Shown: positions 18,686 to 24,920, numbered from the stretch's first letter. The stretch is 64,000 nt of DNA from an uncultured Candidatus Binatia bacterium (GCA_965214605.1 OZ243961.1:1920001-1984000); one strand, 5' to 3'. Notes: generated by a model not told the origin, from the sequence alone. Made by a program: numbers and translations.

Positions 18686-19462
18686 TTATTGGTCTCTCAC
18701 AGCGTTGACGTGTTTGTGTTCGACACGGATTTCTCTAGCCTTAGCTTCCAGCTCAAGCGCCTCAGCCTGGCGATCTGTTCGGCGCAGTAGTGGCGCGTAC
18801 TTCTCGATGAGCAGGGCGACCGCAGGATGCTTTGCACCGAGTTTTTGTTGTCGGATTTCCAAGGCGCGCTGAAAAATCGGAGCCGCCTCTTCGTCCCTGC
18901 CCTGAGCAACCGCAACCTCTGCTTGGCCGCACAGGGTCGTTGCCACCGAGTGATGGTCGGGCCCAAAAAACCGGGTGCGAATACTGAGCGAGCGCGTGAA
19001 CAGAGCGGACGCCTCATCGTAGCGCGTCTGCTCCATATATACCGCGGCCAGATTATTGAGACAGTTGGTCACCCGCCAATGGTCCGGGCCAACAATGGCC
19101 TCGGCAATGGTCAAGACTTTTTGTAAAAACACCTCGGCTTCGTCCAGCTTGCCGAGCTCGCGGTATAGCGAGGCCAGATTATTCAGGCTCTGGGCGACAA
19201 AAGGATGCTCCGAGCCGTATTTTTCCCGCCGGATATCCAGCGCCCGCCGATAGTGCTGTTCGGCCTCTTGGAGTTTGCCCTGGTTATGGCACAGATTGGC
19301 CAAGTTATTGAGCACCATCGCCACCCGCGTGTCTTTCGGACCAAACCTCTCCACTATTTCCAAGGCCTCACGAAAATGCTGTTCGGCCCGGTCATACACC
19401 CCCTGTTGATACAGACGAAACCCGTCCTCATTGATCTTTTGCCACCGCGTCTCTGTACTCAT
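18686..19462 (-). CDS. Tetratricopeptide-repeat protein (kinesin-light-chain-like 42-aa repeats)
   Basis: Repeated GP.H..VA..LNNLA.LY..QG...EA...Y.RAL.I units; GGGGGAA RBS before ATG 19462. Confidence 0.88.
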   Translation of the reverse strand: MSTETRWQKINEDGFRLYQQGVYDRAEQHFREALEIVERFGPKDTRVAMVLNNLANLCHNQGKLQEAEQHYRRALDIRREKYGSEHPFVAQSLNNLASLYRELGKLDEAEVFLQKVLTIAEAIVGPDHWRVTNCLNNLAAVYMEQTRYDEASALFTRSLSIRTRFFGPDHHSVATTLCGQAEVAVAQGRDEEAAPIFQRALEIRQQKLGAKHPAVALLIEKYAPLLRRTDRQAEALELEAKAREIRVEHKHVNAVRDQ

Positions 19463-19518
19463 ATTCCCCCCTACCAGCCCTGTAATCGAGAGTCGAGCAG
19501 GTCGGTTTGAAAGCCCTC

Positions 19519-20388
19519 TCACCTCTCTTGAGGCTGACTTTCCATAAGCCACTTTTCCATGAGATCTTTGAGTTCTTCAACAGAAAAGACGCCAAGCTCT
19601 TGCCAGGCTGAGCGGACGCCAATGAGCCGCAGAATCTTTTTCAAGGTGCTCGTTTTGAAGACCGGATTCTCTGGGTCCGCTATCCGTTCGGACAAGGCCC
19701 ATATCAGGGCAGTACGGACTTCCCCGTCACCCAAAACGGAATTTCTTGAGACAAGGAGGTTGATTAACTCTTCCCAATACTGCTGCGAATATCCCAAAAC
19801 CTTGGCGACGGATGTCAATTCCGCTCCTGTGTTATCACAGACCTCATTCGCCAGATATCGACGCCACCACGCCCGCGCGAACGGGCAATTTACATAAACG
19901 CTTCTGTTGCCTCGGGCCTCGGGCAATCCGCTCATACGCCTCAACGCCGTGCGGACAGTCCCATCTATTTCCTTGTCACTGCCGTCTTGCAAAGCCTGAC
20001 CAATCCGCGCAAGACCGCTCGACGTACTTCCACTGCCGGCGGCAAGAAAACTCGACTGGATTCTGCCCTCCTTGATATGGCGTAGGGTCATACATCCCCA
20101 AAATCCGACGCGACAGGCAATCGCTGGAGGGATGGACTTCCACAACTCAAAAATCTGTCGCTCGGTACTCTTTGGCGGCTCCTTGAATTCGGCCTCGGTC
20201 AGATTCTCCTCAAGGGTTGGCAGGCCGTCACCGGGCACTATCTCGACCTGTTCTCTCATCCACGCCGAATAACGATCACTCGAGCACAGGACATTCAGAA
20301 ACTCTTTTTGCCTGTCGGACCCTTTTGTTCTGAGAAGGTCTTTACGCAGCGCGGTATAGGAGGCGTCATCAAACTGCTCGTAGTTCAA
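19519..20388 (-). CDS. DUF6339-like hypothetical protein, last gene of the 4-gene cassette
   Basis: FW..MTL and N.PFARAWW motifs recalled for DUF6339-type proteins; TTG start 1 nt after the upstream TAG with GGAGG RBS. Confidence 0.55.
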   Translation of the reverse strand: MNYEQFDDASYTALRKDLLRTKGSDRQKEFLNVLCSSDRYSAWMREQVEIVPGDGLPTLEENLTEAEFKEPPKSTERQIFELWKSIPPAIACRVGFWGCMTLRHIKEGRIQSSFLAAGSGSTSSGLARIGQALQDGSDKEIDGTVRTALRRMSGLPEARGNRSVYVNCPFARAWWRRYLANEVCDNTGAELTSVAKVLGYSQQYWEELINLLVSRNSVLGDGEVRTALIWALSERIADPENPVFKTSTLKKILRLIGVRSAWQELGVFSVEELKDLMEKWLMESQPQER

Positions 20389-20389
20389 G

Positions 20390-21223
20390 CTACCCCTCCG
20401 GTTCTGTCTGAGAAGGTTTGTGGGGATAGCGTTTAGTTGCCACCAAATCAGCAGAAAAATTATCGGCGTCCCAAAGGGGCAGATCGTACCCTTCCAAATC
20501 AGCTGCCAGTGCTTTCAGATTACTGTACTGCTCCCATTCTCTACCACCGTCCTCACTCTGGCCGCTGTAGTCCTTTCTGAGAATCTCAAAGCAGCGACTC
20601 ACAATATGGGTCAGAATGCTACCGCGATGATTTTTGTGCTCTCCAGCGTTTTGGAGAAATTGGCATAAATCCGAAGCGGCAGAGACCTTAAAATAAAATC
20701 CATCATCCGTACACGGAGCCACCTCAAAGCTGCCCGCTGGGAGTTGTTCATTTCGATTGATTTGAAGCAATTCGTGGACAGATGAAGACGGTCTCAAATA
20801 GCCCCGTAATGCCAACCGCGCACCTTTGGGAAACGTGATCTCCCGCCCCTGCCAGACTTCCGCCGCCCCACTGTCGCTTCCCAGGGTACGAGAAATTTCA
20901 GCAACGGAAACAATGAGGGGACGCAGCATGGGCGGCTCACCCACTACGGTCATGTCCAACTTAATGTGCTGACGCTCCTCATCGGAGAGGTGCAACTTTC
21001 GGTGTCCGGTAAGAGGGACTGCAATCAGGCATCCATACCTGGCCTGACCTTGGCGGATCAGGCGGTCCAGAAAAGGGACGTTGCGAACCTTGTGACGGAT
21101 CGTCACGGAAGTGTCGTCGGTCTGTAGTACATCAACCGCATACTCTCCCTCTGGATAAGAGAGATTACCATCTACCAAAACCGGATACGGAAGCGCTCTG
21201 AGAACTTCGCCGGCCCGTGCCAC
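20390..21223 (-). CDS. Hypothetical protein with N-terminal LPYPVL motif, third gene of the cassette
   Basis: 277-aa ORF; GTG start with GAGGAGG RBS 12 nt after the ATPase stop. Confidence 0.75.
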   Translation of the reverse strand: MARAGEVLRALPYPVLVDGNLSYPEGEYAVDVLQTDDTSVTIRHKVRNVPFLDRLIRQGQARYGCLIAVPLTGHRKLHLSDEERQHIKLDMTVVGEPPMLRPLIVSVAEISRTLGSDSGAAEVWQGREITFPKGARLALRGYLRPSSSVHELLQINRNEQLPAGSFEVAPCTDDGFYFKVSAASDLCQFLQNAGEHKNHRGSILTHIVSRCFEILRKDYSGQSEDGGREWEQYSNLKALAADLEGYDLPLWDADNFSADLVATKRYPHKPSQTEPEG

Positions 21224-21235
21224 CGCTGAGCCTCC

Positions 21236-23257
21236 TCATTTTGCAGAATCGCCGGCACGACGAATAATCTCCGTCTTCAGCACGATCGGACTATCGGCGG
21301 AAACGTGAACGCTTTCGGGGAGCTCATAATCAATTTCTATGTTCAGGGGATTATCACGATCAAGGGCACCAAGTCGGACTCCGAGCACACGATTTTTCTC
21401 ATCGCGGATCAGATTTTCACCGGACACCGCTTCACCATCGACTTTGACAGTCTTCAGTCTCACAAATTCTTCACCTCCTACGTCATCGCATGTTTCATCC
21501 AGGCCTTCATCTAACACGAATCGGATTTCGCTGCCGACGCAGCGTTCTTCAGACCTGATGTCGAATCGGTAGGACCGTGCGCCGGTAGGGACGGAAAGTC
21601 CGCGTATCCGAAGGGCATTACCCGTCCGGCGAAAGCTGCCACGTCCGCTCCTGCGCCGACGGCTACCCGTGCCATTTCCTTTTCCTTGGTTTTCAAATTC
21701 GTCAGGATCTAAACCCTCTTCTGTTTGACTCTCGCCTTCGGTCGGTGCTCTGCTCCTCCGTCTTGGCACTTCGCGGAACTTGCCCACTAGAGAAGAACGC
21801 TGTCCACCCGGGGCAATGCCATGTTTACTGATCGACAGGACATCGTGGACTTTGAATTGTTCATTACTCGTAGGGGGAATAATCTCGTGGACTTTAGAGG
21901 CTATTGCTTCCAGAGCTTTGTACACCTGTTTACGTTCGTCTGTCCGAAGTTTTTTCAACGACACTTCATTATGCAGTGGCCCCTCAGCTTTACGCACGAG
22001 GCGATGAATGCTTCCAGCATCTTCGGCTTCAGCCTTGAGCAGTACAACACAATGAAATGGCTTTAAACTGGCAAAATTGGCTTCTCGAAGCTTCCCCGGC
22101 AGCTTATTCGTGATCCACATCCCATTTCGGCATAGCTCAATGCTTGTCTTGCCATCATCTAATTTCCGCAGTTTCAAGGCAACATTACCAACCTCTGTTT
22201 CAACGGAAACGTCATCTCCTTTCTCTACCGTATCGAGCGCAGCAGCAGCCCGAGACCCGGATAAAAACTTGCTATAAGCCCGCCTCTGGTCGCGGTATTC
22301 AGCCAATGTAGCCCTAATAGTAGTATGATCGAGGACCTGAGTTTCGCCTTCTTCCTTTATAAACTCAACTCGAAGTTCTTTCTGTGCAAATGCAGCGAAG
22401 AAATTGCACGCTGCAGCCTTCGATATCATATCCCACAGAGACTTCGATTCACGAAAATCGTTGAATCCCGGAACAGCCACAACGGTGCCTGACTGCCACC
22501 GGTCAGCGATCCACTTCAGCTTGCTCATGATATACTCAGGGATCTCGCTGTTCTGTAGAAAAGTATATGGATCGTACAGGTCTTGGTTGAGGCGCTTGAC
22601 AAAATAGCCGTCCTTACTTTTGCTTACACGTCTGCCGTCCTTACTTTTGCTTACACGTCTGCCGTCCTTGCTTTGGTGGGACGCAAGGATAGCGTGGCCT
22701 GCTGCGATCATCTGCTTCTGTTGAGTCAGACCACCATATAAGACATATCGCAGGTCTGAAGCAGGGATAACAACAAAATGGCCGTTCCCGACAGCACCGG
22801 CACTGTTCTCGCTCTTAACGCTCACCCCATCTGCTAAGATTCCTTTCATCCTAGCCTTATCAAGGCCGATACCATTGTCGAGAATGTACAGGGTCCTACA
22901 CGATTCCGACTTCAGACAAGTCTCAATAGCCTCCACAATGTCCTTTGCTTGGTCAGCCAAGGCGCCATTACGCAACCTCTTTTGAGCCTGCTTCGCACAA
23001 TCAAACGCCTCTCGATACTGCTTGATACCTGGTACCTCATCCAGAGCATGCTTTTTCAGTTCAAAGCGAATACAGGCATCCCGCCCAGCTTCACGTGCCG
23101 CGTCCAATGAATTTTGCATGATCTCCCGAACAATGGCCTCCGGATTAAGGTCACCAAAGGCAGCGATGCCGGCTGCGGTAAAACCCGCGATCTCTCCCCC
23201 CACCTCGAAATGGAGATCAGGGCTTCCCGACCGCCGCTGCTTGTTTTTCTTATTCAT
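21236..23257 (-). CDS. GHKL (MORC/MutL/Hsp90-type) ATPase-domain protein
   Basis: Bergerat-fold boxes IVREIMQNSLDAA (N box), LDNGIGL (G1), SAGAVGNGH (G2), SGTVV; charged linker and beta-rich C-terminal domain; GGAG RBS before ATG 23257. Confidence 0.8.
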   Translation of the reverse strand: MNKKNKQRRSGSPDLHFEVGGEIAGFTAAGIAAFGDLNPEAIVREIMQNSLDAAREAGRDACIRFELKKHALDEVPGIKQYREAFDCAKQAQKRLRNGALADQAKDIVEAIETCLKSESCRTLYILDNGIGLDKARMKGILADGVSVKSENSAGAVGNGHFVVIPASDLRYVLYGGLTQQKQMIAAGHAILASHQSKDGRRVSKSKDGRRVSKSKDGYFVKRLNQDLYDPYTFLQNSEIPEYIMSKLKWIADRWQSGTVVAVPGFNDFRESKSLWDMISKAAACNFFAAFAQKELRVEFIKEEGETQVLDHTTIRATLAEYRDQRRAYSKFLSGSRAAAALDTVEKGDDVSVETEVGNVALKLRKLDDGKTSIELCRNGMWITNKLPGKLREANFASLKPFHCVVLLKAEAEDAGSIHRLVRKAEGPLHNEVSLKKLRTDERKQVYKALEAIASKVHEIIPPTSNEQFKVHDVLSISKHGIAPGGQRSSLVGKFREVPRRRSRAPTEGESQTEEGLDPDEFENQGKGNGTGSRRRRSGRGSFRRTGNALRIRGLSVPTGARSYRFDIRSEERCVGSEIRFVLDEGLDETCDDVGGEEFVRLKTVKVDGEAVSGENLIRDEKNRVLGVRLGALDRDNPLNIEIDYELPESVHVSADSPIVLKTEIIRRAGDSAK
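22607..22669. repeat. In-frame 27-bp tandem duplication (2.3 copies) in the GHKL gene
   Basis: GCCGTCCTTACTTTTGCTTACACGTCT at 22607-22633 and 22634-22660 plus a partial copy; encodes SKDGRRVSK-SKDGRRVSK-SKDG. Confidence 0.95.
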
Positions 23258-23603
23258 TGCTCCGTCTCTCTGATAGATAGCCAATCGTAGATGTCATCAA
23301 TCTCCTCCCTGCTGTGACGTAGCGCTCAATCAACGCCTGCAGCACCTCTCCGTGTTGACGTAACGGCTTCCGGCCTTTCCTTGTGGCGGTCAGGCGTATT
23401 CGGCCCCCGCGACCGTGACTCTCGACCCACACGAACAGCAGCCCTCCGGCCCACACAACTATCTGCCCAAGGTCGGCCCCCAAAGCAGCGAGCGTTGGAC
23501 AGCTACAGTGGCCATCTCAAAATCGGTCATGGTTGTGACCTGAACGCGAGTCGCTAGGCGAAATAATTCCCACCCAAGAGCAAGCAACTGAGGTGCTAGG
23601 CGT

Positions 23604-24920
23604 TTAGTCTGTACAATCGCAGGGCAAAACACTGTCTTCGTAGGGAGAGAGCGCTGTGTCATCATCAGGTAACTCCGCCAGCCGTTTATAGGAAAAACCG
23701 CTTTGTGTCCCAAAAAACCCGATGAAATTATTGGCGACAGTAGCACGAATAGCGCGCCCTTCCGCCTCAAGATCACGGCCGTATCGCTGTTCAATCCCGA
23801 CCCACCAAGCGAGATCGCAGGGCGTATTTTTGAGTCCTACTGTCATGTCCTTCAGGGATACACGCGCTTTGCGCAACCCTCGGATACCTTTGAGGAAACA
23901 GTAGGTACAGTTGGACAGCCCGTTTTCAACGTCGAGCGCTAAGTCCCACGCCTGCTTTTTCCAGAACGTCTCCACATCCTCCTGAGTGATACCCATATCG
24001 CTCAGGGGCAGGTAGACGTGTTCCCCTTCATACCCGGCGGCGTGGACCTCACTGGTGTTGCGTTGTCGCACTCGGATCACACGCCGCATTTCATCGCGCC
24101 GGAGTCCCACGAAAGCAAGATATTCGACGCCCTCAGAGCCGAAATACACCTGGTGACTGAGACTTTCTTTCGTAAGGTAAGGATTTGTGATGGGGCACGT
24201 GGCGGCTGAATAGTCCGCAAACCGCTGTGCTGACCGAAACACTGGCCGTGACCGAACAAACCGCTTTTTCTCCAGAAAAATGTCCCGGGGAACCTCCCCC
24301 TTATGGCGTAGGTGATGTTCGTACATTTCGTCGTCGTCAAGACGGCTGTTCTTCCCAAAATGGCCAAGGCGTTCGGTGTGCGGCTTACAGGTCAACCAAT
24401 CCTTCAGAAATGCTCTGGTCGTCTCGAGCTTGAGGCGCGAGGTGCAGGTACGTCTGAATTGGTTCGGCGCATACCCCGTCCAGGACAGTAGTTCCTCAAA
24501 GGCTTCGCCACGCCAACAGTATCCATCTGTATTTGTCTCAGAGCGGGGAACGGGCTGAACGAGGCGGTATGAGGGCAGGCGTACCCACTCCCCGTTTCTC
24601 GCATCCTCATAGGTCTGAAATTCGACGAGAAAAAACGGGAGACCATAGCGATTTTCGACAAGCTCTTTACAACGACTCACAAATTCATAGGTGGCGGGAT
24701 GCTCGGCAGACGTGTTGTTGAACACCACTACATCACCCCGTTCGGGCTGTAAGAGACCGGCTTCGAGCAGGACAAAGAGCATCATGCCGCTCGTCCTGCC
24801 GCCTGAAAACTTGACAACGTGGGGCAGATCTTCATGGCCGGACAGGTCGTACCAGAATAGCTGATCCGCGCCGTGCTTCCTTCTCAGTTTCGGGACCGCT
24901 CTTATCCCTCGCCCAGTCAT
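23604..24920 (-). CDS. PAPS-reductase/DndC-like PP-loop (adenine-nucleotide alpha-hydrolase) protein, phage/defence-island type
   Basis: VVKFSGGRTSG PP-loop, FNNTSAEHPATYEF, CTSRLK, GLRRDE, SNCTYCFLKG, terminal PCDCTD. Confidence 0.82.
   Translation of the reverse strand: MTGRGIRAVPKLRRKHGADQLFWYDLSGHEDLPHVVKFSGGRTSGMMLFVLLEAGLLQPERGDVVVFNNTSAEHPATYEFVSRCKELVENRYGLPFFLVEFQTYEDARNGEWVRLPSYRLVQPVPRSETNTDGYCWRGEAFEELLSWTGYAPNQFRRTCTSRLKLETTRAFLKDWLTCKPHTERLGHFGKNSRLDDDEMYEHHLRHKGEVPRDIFLEKKRFVRSRPVFRSAQRFADYSAATCPITNPYLTKESLSHQVYFGSEGVEYLAFVGLRRDEMRRVIRVRQRNTSEVHAAGYEGEHVYLPLSDMGITQEDVETFWKKQAWDLALDVENGLSNCTYCFLKGIRGLRKARVSLKDMTVGLKNTPCDLAWWVGIEQRYGRDLEAEGRAIRATVANNFIGFFGTQSGFSYKRLAELPDDDTALSPYEDSVLPCDCTD

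Follow-up and report, generated by a model that had tools for sequence, protein, structure and literature searches.

A PP-loop protein gene linked to a GHKL ATPase trio: a candidate phosphorothioate-type DNA-marking cassette in an uncultured Candidatus Binatia bacterium

A 64,000-nucleotide (nt) stretch of DNA from an uncultured Candidatus Binatia bacterium (GCA_965214605.1 OZ243961.1:1920001-1984000), referred to here in its entirety as the window, carries a cassette of four genes, called P, A, B, and C, that encode a PP-loop protein, a GHKL ATPase, and two further proteins, respectively (Table 1). The PP-loop gene proved to be an integral and conserved partner of the A-B-C trio, whether relatives were collected starting from P or starting from A. 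Judging from sequence comparisons, we propose that the cassette may be a phosphorothioate-type DNA-marking machine of undescribed architecture, which in this bacterium would receive its sulfur in trans; our confidence in this proposal is about evenly balanced. In the text below, X denotes a desulfurase gene found in relatives, L with a number denotes a retrieved locus, and G000 is the genome to which the window belongs.

A search with a profile of the P family yielded 64 metagenome loci, in which genes were assigned by hidden Markov model searches at the level of open reading frames (ORFs). In 50 of them, A, B, or C was found next to P and encoded on its strand. The loci showed two basic gene orders. 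P preceded the trio as P-X-A-B-C in 14 loci (two of them cut short) and as P-A-B-C, with no adjacent desulfurase gene, in another 14 (one cut); in 22 loci the order was A-B-C-P (one cut, and two with X after P). All 14 loci having at least 3 kb on each side of P contained the trio. The persistence of linkage despite the altered gene order argues for a joint function. None of the 14 loci without the trio had enough flanking sequence to count against linkage: some were too short or cut on the trio side (L017, L022, L031, L046, L051, L054, L059, L062, L063, and L069), L065 and L068 contained a distant, short P family, and L066 and L067 gave no match at the ORF level. Two relatives of A from the genome collection (29% identity) both had P directly upstream. 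A survey of the bacterium's own phylum proved uninformative, with matches in 4 of 401 genomes, of which only those in G000 and in a 2.2-kb contig of G233 were real.

An independent search was made with the PADLOC model PDC-M33A against 401 genomes of another phylum, that of L002, with a threshold of E ≤ 1e-20. It matched 16 places in 12 genomes, and every one of the 16 had a modifier of some kind. Fourteen had a separate P gene upstream of A-B-C. At one place (L197), a single ORF of 559 amino acids (aa) joined a DUF6339 domain (3.2e-27) to an SspD-like PP-loop domain (5e-17) bearing the RxCT and CxxC features of P. This fused family comprised at least 984 clusters at E ≤ 1e-5; the 120 clusters listed were mostly of about 543 aa, with 91–98% query coverage, and were labelled only as DUF6339 or hypothetical. 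Many entries named only "DUF6339 family protein" carry a PP-loop domain that is not annotated. The last place (L199), which was the best match to the PDC-M33A prototype (2.7e-99), had no PP-loop gene; instead, a gene for a C-5 cytosine DNA methylase (PF00145, 3.5e-51) lay immediately upstream of A, co-oriented with it and overlapping it. An earlier reading of the window, made from its sequence only, had suggested that similar trios occur beside cytosine methylases and had advised looking for an upstream slot that alternates between Dcm and PAPS reductase; the suggestion was borne out by this one instance, and the alternation was found with one methylase case.

An alignment of 25 members of the P family showed that the PP-loop motif is an invariant SGGR[T/S]S (SGGRTS in the window's protein), that an RxCTxxLK-like stretch is invariant, and that six cysteines are invariant as well (positions 84, 159, 338, 341, 434, and 436). 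Matches to models of known enzymes were weak: P scored 7.8e-8 with the PADLOC model for SspD, 2.3e-5 with that for BrxP (confined to the 68 residues from 35 to 102), and 7.4e-4 with that for DndC, and its 17.6 bits with Pfam PAPS_reduct fell under the cut-off of 22.5. When P was aligned by hhalign with the SspD encoded elsewhere in its own genome, the similarity ran from the PP-loop through the RxCTxxLK region with an E of 8e-6. By these comparisons P is homologous to SspD, and it is distantly like SspD, DndC, and BrxP. A PDB profile search with P gave nothing meaningful. The family comprises 1369 clusters with no informative name; among those listed, and leaving aside the window's own protein, identity was 52–78%. 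With these clusters for the separate enzyme, in addition to those for the fused one, the family is large in environmental bacteria.

Two kinds of P-like gene were set aside as belonging to a different family. On viral contigs, a shorter, distant P-like family was found, unaccompanied by the trio, in 385 stretches, of which the best 80 were kept as loci; plasmids gave one weak match to P. In G000 itself there is a second short P-like PP-loop gene at about 2.265 Mb, which reads as two frames, one of 225 aa and one of 150 aa, that overlap. This gene is similar to the viral-contig family and was treated in the same way; it may be a prophage gene, and it may be frameshifted.

A matched PDC-M33A at 1.5e-35, and all three GHKL motifs (ExxxNxxD, DxGxG, and GxxGxG) were found in it. 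The Bergerat residues were invariant in 21 sequences: E54, N58, and D61 in motif I; D136, N137, G138, and G140 in motif II; and G163, G166, and G168 in motif III, together with H169. Two further motifs, RNGMWIT and AEGPxH, were also conserved. When the family profile was compared with PDB, the matches were led by Hsp90 (4.4e-4) and MORC3 (1.8e-3), with MORC4 and MutL also present, in an E range of 4e-4 to 0.07; a PDB search with the single sequence gave nothing. The likeness to MORC3 was no better than that to Hsp90 and spanned only about 40 residues. Similarity to solved GHKL proteins was thus confined to the N-terminal ATP-binding motifs, and the remaining 450 residues matched nothing. Relatives of A were found in none of 135 candidate stretches on viral contigs and on no plasmid.

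B and C had PADLOC matches of 4.9e-9 (PDC-M33B) and 8.9e-4 (PDC-M33C, a weak match). B begins with an LPYPVL motif, and its residue P14 is invariant. C scored 17.4 bits with Pfam DUF6339, below the cut-off of 23.2; its relatives in the equivalent gene position pass, with 130.3 bits (8.6e-38) in L199 and 95.9 bits (3.2e-27) in L197. Conservation of both proteins was poor: alignment columns were about 30% identical on average, and invariant polar residues were almost absent. Confident AlphaFold models were obtained, with a predicted local distance difference test (pLDDT) score of 87.6 for B, a beta-sandwich followed by helices, and 91.0 for C, which is all helical. Comparison of these models with PDB by Foldseek gave no match at E ≤ 1e-3, only a weak fibronectin-like beta-sandwich for B and chance-level helical matches for C. 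A PDB profile search gave nothing for B and chance-level matches for C; hhalign detected no similarity of either protein to SspB; and in the ESM Atlas B lay near unnamed hypothetical clusters and C gave nothing usable. B contained neither a known domain nor conserved residues of catalytic appearance, and searches with Pfam, PADLOC, NCBIfam, and Foldseek revealed no nuclease domain in B or C. A predicted B-C complex scored 0.60, the best of three controls scoring 0.00, and the prediction runs agreed in at least 89% of contacts with a pLDDT of at least 87 for the partners. Of 80 solved complexes used for calibration, 58 reached the mark, as did 2 of 110 mismatched pairs; among scores of 0.60 or less it was reached by only 7 of those solved complexes and by both of the passing mismatches. 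The prediction is a weak hint that B and C may interact.

The C gene was duplicated in several cassettes. L202 and L208 had two or three C genes in tandem, L209 had one ORF with two C domains, and L200 had an extra C gene on the opposite strand; L202 contained two complete P-A-B-C cassettes side by side. The fused gene of L197 is followed directly, on its own strand, by a gene for S-adenosylmethionine synthetase, which may be a chance housekeeping neighbor or a functional link.

The genes surrounding the cassette in its relatives bear on what it does. X adjoined P in 17 of the 64 loci, and the A-centered survey, which supplied 13 further P-linked cassettes, added 6 more cases. X encodes a class-V aminotransferase (1e-75 to 1e-88) that matched DndA at 1.2e-143 and SspA at 3e-143. 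After removal of near-duplicate loci, X was the commonest neighbor family, accounting for 13 of the 147 ORFs within three genes of a cassette, and was followed by helicase (5), Sigma70_r4 (5), GmrSD_N (4), and Fic (4). The helicase and Sigma70_r4 proteins are parts of a four-gene module, two members of which match PbeA (5.9e-146) and PbeC (2.6e-42). In L044 the order is A-B-C-P-X followed by the four genes of this Pbe-like module, which are collinear with those after sspD in the window's genome (41, 63, 52, and 52% identity). Because the same four-gene module follows in both cases, the cassette with X in L044 occupies the place of sspBCD with sspA. Parts of the module were also found after the cassette in L008, L012, L014, L015, L019, and L205, and DUF262/GmrSD_N genes were found beside or inside the cassette in L006/L007, L016, L060, L200, L201, L203, L204, and L207. 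DUF262 neighborhoods of dndC and sspD have been proposed as phosphorothioate systems (PMC12914056).

These neighbors speak to two alternatives concerning the chemistry. One is that the mark is something other than a phosphorothioate. It could be a thiolated base, by analogy with tRNA thiolases of the PP-loop type, which likewise work with a cysteine desulfurase, or, in copies without a desulfurase such as the window's, an adduct that contains no sulfur and arises by way of an adenylated intermediate. P is remote from DndC, SspD, and BrxP, whose models it does not satisfy; the combination of a PP-loop enzyme and a desulfurase also serves ThiI, MnmA, Ncs6, and TtcA (PMC12914056); and cassettes in two of the three gene arrangements, the window's included, have no adjacent desulfurase. 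We nevertheless consider such a mark unlikely, since the recurrent Pbe-like and DUF262 neighbors are those known beside phosphorothioate writers, and since the desulfurase scores with DndA and SspA at 1e-143, although these models may not separate it from a housekeeping IscS. The other alternative is that the genes have no role on DNA and form a sulfur assimilation or RNA thiolation module that travels with the ATPase by chance. The PAPS-reductase fold and cysteine desulfurases are indeed used in sulfur metabolism and tRNA thiolation (PMC12914056). However, the recurrent neighbors are helicase-type, Pbe-like, DUF262, and other defense-type genes, a DNA cytosine methylase sits in the equivalent slot of another lineage, and the nearest solved relatives of A include the DNA-acting MORC and MutL proteins; we regard a role away from DNA as very improbable indeed.

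For the marking machine that we favor, the following mechanism can be proposed. P would be the catalytic PP-loop ATP pyrophosphatase, of the same kind as DndC, SspD, and BrxP, that activates the target with ATP and inserts sulfur; the invariant cysteines of P might serve to bind an iron-sulfur cluster or act as persulfide carriers. The sulfur would be delivered by a cysteine desulfurase, which many relatives encode beside P. Since the window's cassette has no such gene, supply would be in trans by one of three class-V enzymes encoded elsewhere; G000 has three strong class-V aminotransferases outside the cassette, one of which is sspA. In known systems, too, the desulfurase may be encoded elsewhere or replaced by iscS (PMC12914056). 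A, B, and C together would form a conserved core that brings the enzyme to DNA, in the role that the P-loop ATPase with its partners has in other systems (DndD/DndE in Dnd and SspC/SspB in Ssp). This core would be modular, with C fused to a PP-loop domain in one lineage and a C5 cytosine methylase occupying the slot in another. Restriction, where present, would come mainly from the neighboring Pbe-like or DUF262 genes.

Several findings weigh against this proposal. The PP-loop of P, SGGR[T/S]S, does not have the usual aspartate. On the curated DndC model TIGR03183, P scored 15.4 bits, the cut-off being 290.4, with an E of 0.0066 over residues 149–178 only; the SspD model covered only its residues 34–89 with 30 bits, as compared with 458 bits for the genome's true SspD. 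Phosphorothioation as the chemistry is suggested by relatives and neighbors of the cassette, and the window's copy has neither a desulfurase gene nor an adjacent restriction gene. In L032, A and B are present only as fragments while C and P are intact, and in L201 and L205, two of the 14 places with a separate P, the frame of P is apparently interrupted. Few environments were sampled, and several loci are near-duplicates (L006/L007, L008/L010, L009/L019, L033/L034, L049/L050, and L056–L058), so that the counts overstate independence. A nuclease could still reside within the 450 C-terminal residues of A, the fold comparison having covered B and C. Two further points, the methylase variant and the origin of the PADLOC candidate, bear directly on what the trio does.

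C5 methylases work without an ATPase core, so the variant in L199, where such a normally helper-free enzyme holds the slot of P, is explained at least equally well if A-B-C is a complex for restriction or reading. In this alternative the cassette resembles a restriction-modification system: P with the desulfurase would be a self-sufficient writer, A-B-C would be the restriction or reader-effector part that attacks unmarked DNA, and the methylase lineage would work alike with another mark. The presence of a modifier at all of the A-centered places is what would be expected if A-B-C were harmful alone, and PADLOC listed the trio as a defense candidate owing to its embedding in BREX, DISARM, or type I restriction-modification loci. 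In Tdp, the synthesis of phosphorothioates is said to need only the tdpC gene (PMC12914056). Moreover, SspE and SspFGH can share one mark (PMC8092258); because two restriction modules can do so, the additional Pbe-like genes are not decisive against a restriction role for the trio. On the other side, no nuclease or effector domain was found in A, B, or C with Pfam, PADLOC, and NCBIfam or in B and C with Foldseek, and B and C are almost without invariant polar residues. There was no solitary P gene among the 14 well-flanked loci, in contrast to the 83.9% of sspBCD modules that are without sspE or sspFGH (PMC8092258). A large family fuses C to a PP-loop domain, and the cassette takes the place of sspBCD before a Pbe-like module. 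We judge a restriction complex to be possible rather than probable. The sequence-only reading had described a restriction-like module; a PP-loop gene does occupy the modification slot, but a restriction role of the trio would be no more than a possibility, as the lack of a nuclease domain in B and C, the separate Pbe-like or DUF262 genes, and the fusion of C with a PP-loop domain would fit the trio at least as well as part of the marking machine.

A combination of the two roles can also be imagined, in which P-A-B-C would be a self-contained immune system whose GHKL complex both guides sulfur writing and destroys or silences unmarked DNA. The mark might then differ from a phosphorothioate, for example by being a thiolated base, and the core would swap sulfur chemistry for cytosine methylation. 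We consider this rather doubtful; if true, it would add a fifth system to those that mark DNA with sulfur, and the one that diverges most from the others in mechanism.

The marking machine proposed above was compared with the systems already described. With SspABCD it shares a PP-loop enzyme homologous to SspD, a DndA/SspA-like desulfurase encoded adjacently or elsewhere, an essential ATPase partner, and the four-gene Pbe-like module, which follows sspBCD in the window's own genome and the cassette in L044. It differs in having neither SspB (DUF4007) nor SspC (P-loop, DUF6079), in having an ATPase of the GHKL type, and in the build of P, a protein of 438 aa whose C-terminal half is additional and rich in cysteine and which matches the SspD model over only about 55 residues. 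TdpA, a hexameric translocase, and TdpB, a nuclease, are not known to be GHKL proteins; the likeness to TdpABC, drawn by description only, is that of a compact phosphorothioate system. PDB profile searches with P, A, B, and C gave no Tdp chain, although the PDB copy searched may not contain any. One PP-loop-type gene of that system is reported as the writer (PMC12914056). The component logic of Dnd is similar (desulfurase, PP-loop enzyme, ATPase, and small partners), and Pbe-type restriction partners occur with both, but PADLOC detected no DndD (ABC ATPase), DndE, or DndB in the cassette. The modification slot of Dnd alternates as well: Rakesh et al. found the DndD/DndE core with cytosine methylases replacing the phosphorothioate genes (PMC10853773). 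The cassette may provide, independently of DndD/DndE, a second DNA-scanning core in which cytosine methylation can replace sulfur chemistry. BREX type 4 likewise has a PP-loop domain fused to an accessory domain, BrxP being an SspD-SspB fusion (PMC12914056) and the L197 protein a DUF6339-PP-loop fusion; no brxC, pglZ, or brxL was found by PADLOC on A, B, and C or by Pfam on ten flanking ORFs. By these comparisons the cassette is outside Dnd, Ssp, and BREX type 4, whose curated or full-length models it does not reach and whose partner genes are absent, and Tdp is compared by description only.

The trio A-B-C, in contrast, is by its model matches a member of the candidate system PDC-M33: its three models are matched by three genes lying in the corresponding order on a single strand, and the best example, L199, is the methylase-linked form. 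The sequence-only reading had stated that the cassette fits no named system, which stands for Dnd, Ssp, and BREX type 4 and has to be amended for this PADLOC candidate. PDC-M33 is, however, a three-gene prediction, and the links with the PP-loop protein, the desulfurase, and the Pbe-like genes lie outside the matched PADLOC models. The ATP-binding fold and the DNA-modification gene context are shared with prokaryotic MORC/MutL-type GHKL ATPases. Such ATPases are said, by Iyer, Abhiman, and Aravind in 2008, to occur in restriction-modification operons. The PDC systems are 145 candidates chosen for their embedding in BREX, DISARM, or type I restriction-modification loci (bioRxiv 10.1101/2024.01.29.577857); the main text of that article does not name PDC-M33. 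Literature searches, with subscription papers and supplements outside their range, found no mention of PDC-M33 or DUF6339, none of a PAPS reductase tied to a GHKL ATPase, and nothing relevant on GHKL or MORC proteins with phosphorothioation or cysteine desulfurase. PMC10853773 makes no mention of GHKL, MORC, or Hsp90. So far, Dnd, Ssp, BREX type 4, and Tdp have been described as writers of phosphorothioates in DNA, and the first three of them are reported to rely on a P-loop ATPase (PMC12914056); the neighborhood screen in that article demanded a P-loop NTPase and so would miss a GHKL architecture. The cassette would represent a different solution, a divergent PP-loop enzyme tied to a GHKL ATPase and to two proteins without a solved structural match, and the proposal offers a concrete, testable function for PDC-M33.

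Positions of the features discussed are given in Table 1. As the sequence-only reading had noted, the four genes are co-oriented on the minus strand in an AT-rich block with catabolic surroundings, and the last three are tightly coupled with GGAG-type ribosome binding sites. The 12 nt between the stop codon of A and the start of B contain GGAGG, and 1 nt separates the stop codon of B from the start of C, with GGAGGGG just upstream. The open frame of A gives 682 aa when counted from a TTG at 23284; alignment with relatives and a GGAG six bases upstream make the ATG at 23256 its likely start. The spacing between P and A is about 320–350 nt. This gap showed no promoter or terminator signal above shuffled expectation, and tblastn detected no remnant of a desulfurase gene in it; none was found anywhere in the window.

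Table 1. Features of the cassette, of its genome, and of selected relatives (positions in the window unless another sequence is named)
Feature	Sequence	Position	Strand	Description
P	window	23604-24920	minus	ORF of 438 aa; PP-loop (PAPS-reductase-fold) protein, proposed sulfur-inserting enzyme
P-A intergenic gap	window	23257-23603	none	slot of DndA/SspA-like cysteine desulfurase in many relatives
A	window	21236-23256 from likely ATG; open frame 21236-23284	minus	GHKL (Bergerat-fold) ATPase, PDC-M33A
27-nt tandem repeat inside A	window	22607-22674	minus	2.5 copies, in frame (Tandem Repeats Finder)
B	window	20390-21223	minus	277 aa, PDC-M33B
C	window	19519-20388	minus	289 aa, all-helical, DUF6339 kind, PDC-M33C
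TPR-only protein gene	window	18686-19552	minus	288 aa, TPR_12 and TPR_10, directly after C
sspABCD and Pbe-like locus	G000:C1	about 2063400-2077300 (L087 7468-19998, L088 77-1252)		canonical Ssp locus of the window's genome
Short P-like PP-loop gene	G000:C1	2265217-2265851 (L004; L086 7158-8080)		two overlapping frames
S-adenosylmethionine synthetase gene	L197	5546-6727	minus	directly downstream of fused gene
Fic/DOC-domain gene	L026	5860-6546		directly after P
DpdF-like helicase gene	L054/L063	3906-7736		1276 aa, with DUF559 endonuclease-like region

The G+C content of the cassette is 52.8%, as compared with 57.5% for the window (standard deviation of 1.5% among windows of the same length). 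An equally low value was found in only 4 of 586 sliding windows, all of which overlap the cassette, making it the 5.4 kb of lowest G+C content in the window. All four frames are open and of full length, the invariant residues of all four families are present in the window's proteins, and we take the cassette to be intact. The tandem repeat in A (97% match) duplicates a nine-residue lysine/arginine-rich unit in a variable loop and is absent from the aligned relatives. These features bear on the alternative that the window's copy is an inactive or decaying remnant that was acquired horizontally, lost its desulfurase and restriction partner, and no longer marks DNA. The low G+C content, the absence of a desulfurase that is present in the closest relatives with context, the duplication inside A, and the canonical Ssp system of the same genome, which could make the cassette redundant, are all consistent with decay. 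Against it stand the full-length frames with every invariant residue kept, the in-frame position of the duplication in a variable loop, and the 14 metagenome loci in P-A-B-C order that likewise have no adjacent desulfurase. We think it improbable that the copy is such a remnant.

The canonical system, a complete sspABCD with a Pbe-like locus, lies beyond the window, at a distance of about 120 kb from the cassette. Its sspA is on the opposite strand, and sspB, sspC, and sspD matched at 5e-107, E = 0, and 3e-138, respectively; sspD is followed by genes for a 716-aa Sigma70_r4-containing protein, a PbeA-like helicase, a PbeC-like ABC ATPase, and a 161-aa protein. The Ssp writer of this genome is thus paired with Pbe-type genes and not with SspE or SspFGH. 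The sequence-only reading had noted the absence of dnd, ssp, and methylase genes, which is true of the cassette and does not extend to the genome. Because no restriction gene adjoins the window's copy, it would be either a solitary marking module or a partner of the distant Ssp/Pbe-like locus. The coexistence of the two in one genome raises the possibility of crosstalk, in which two writers might feed one reader.

In the window the flanks of the cassette are catabolic. Pfam analysis of the ten flanking ORFs identified amidase, amidohydrolases, a family III CoA-transferase, MaoC dehydratases, and a dienelactone hydrolase, together with one TPR protein. The gene for the latter lies directly after C, and it may be translationally coupled to the cassette since an in-frame GTG at 19522 overlaps the stop codon of C (GTGA). 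It was rejected as a cassette component because no homologue was found in any of the 198 retrieved loci. Comparison with a genome of the same family, G110, left the borders of the island undefined, as the amidohydrolase alone was conserved. Family III CoA-transferases and amidohydrolases are highly paralogous in this lineage; in G110, the CoA-transferase gave 32 matches and the amidohydrolase at least 10.

Among the relatives, two further kinds of neighbor were observed. A gene for a Fic/DOC-domain protein (PADLOC PDC-S04, 1.5e-41) lies directly after P in L026, L028, L029, and L030, which form one clade of the A-B-C-P order. In L054/L063 and L056/L058, the cassette has near it a gene for a type II N6/N4 DNA methyltransferase and one for a DpdF-like helicase that includes a DUF559 endonuclease-like region, which suggests a defense island.

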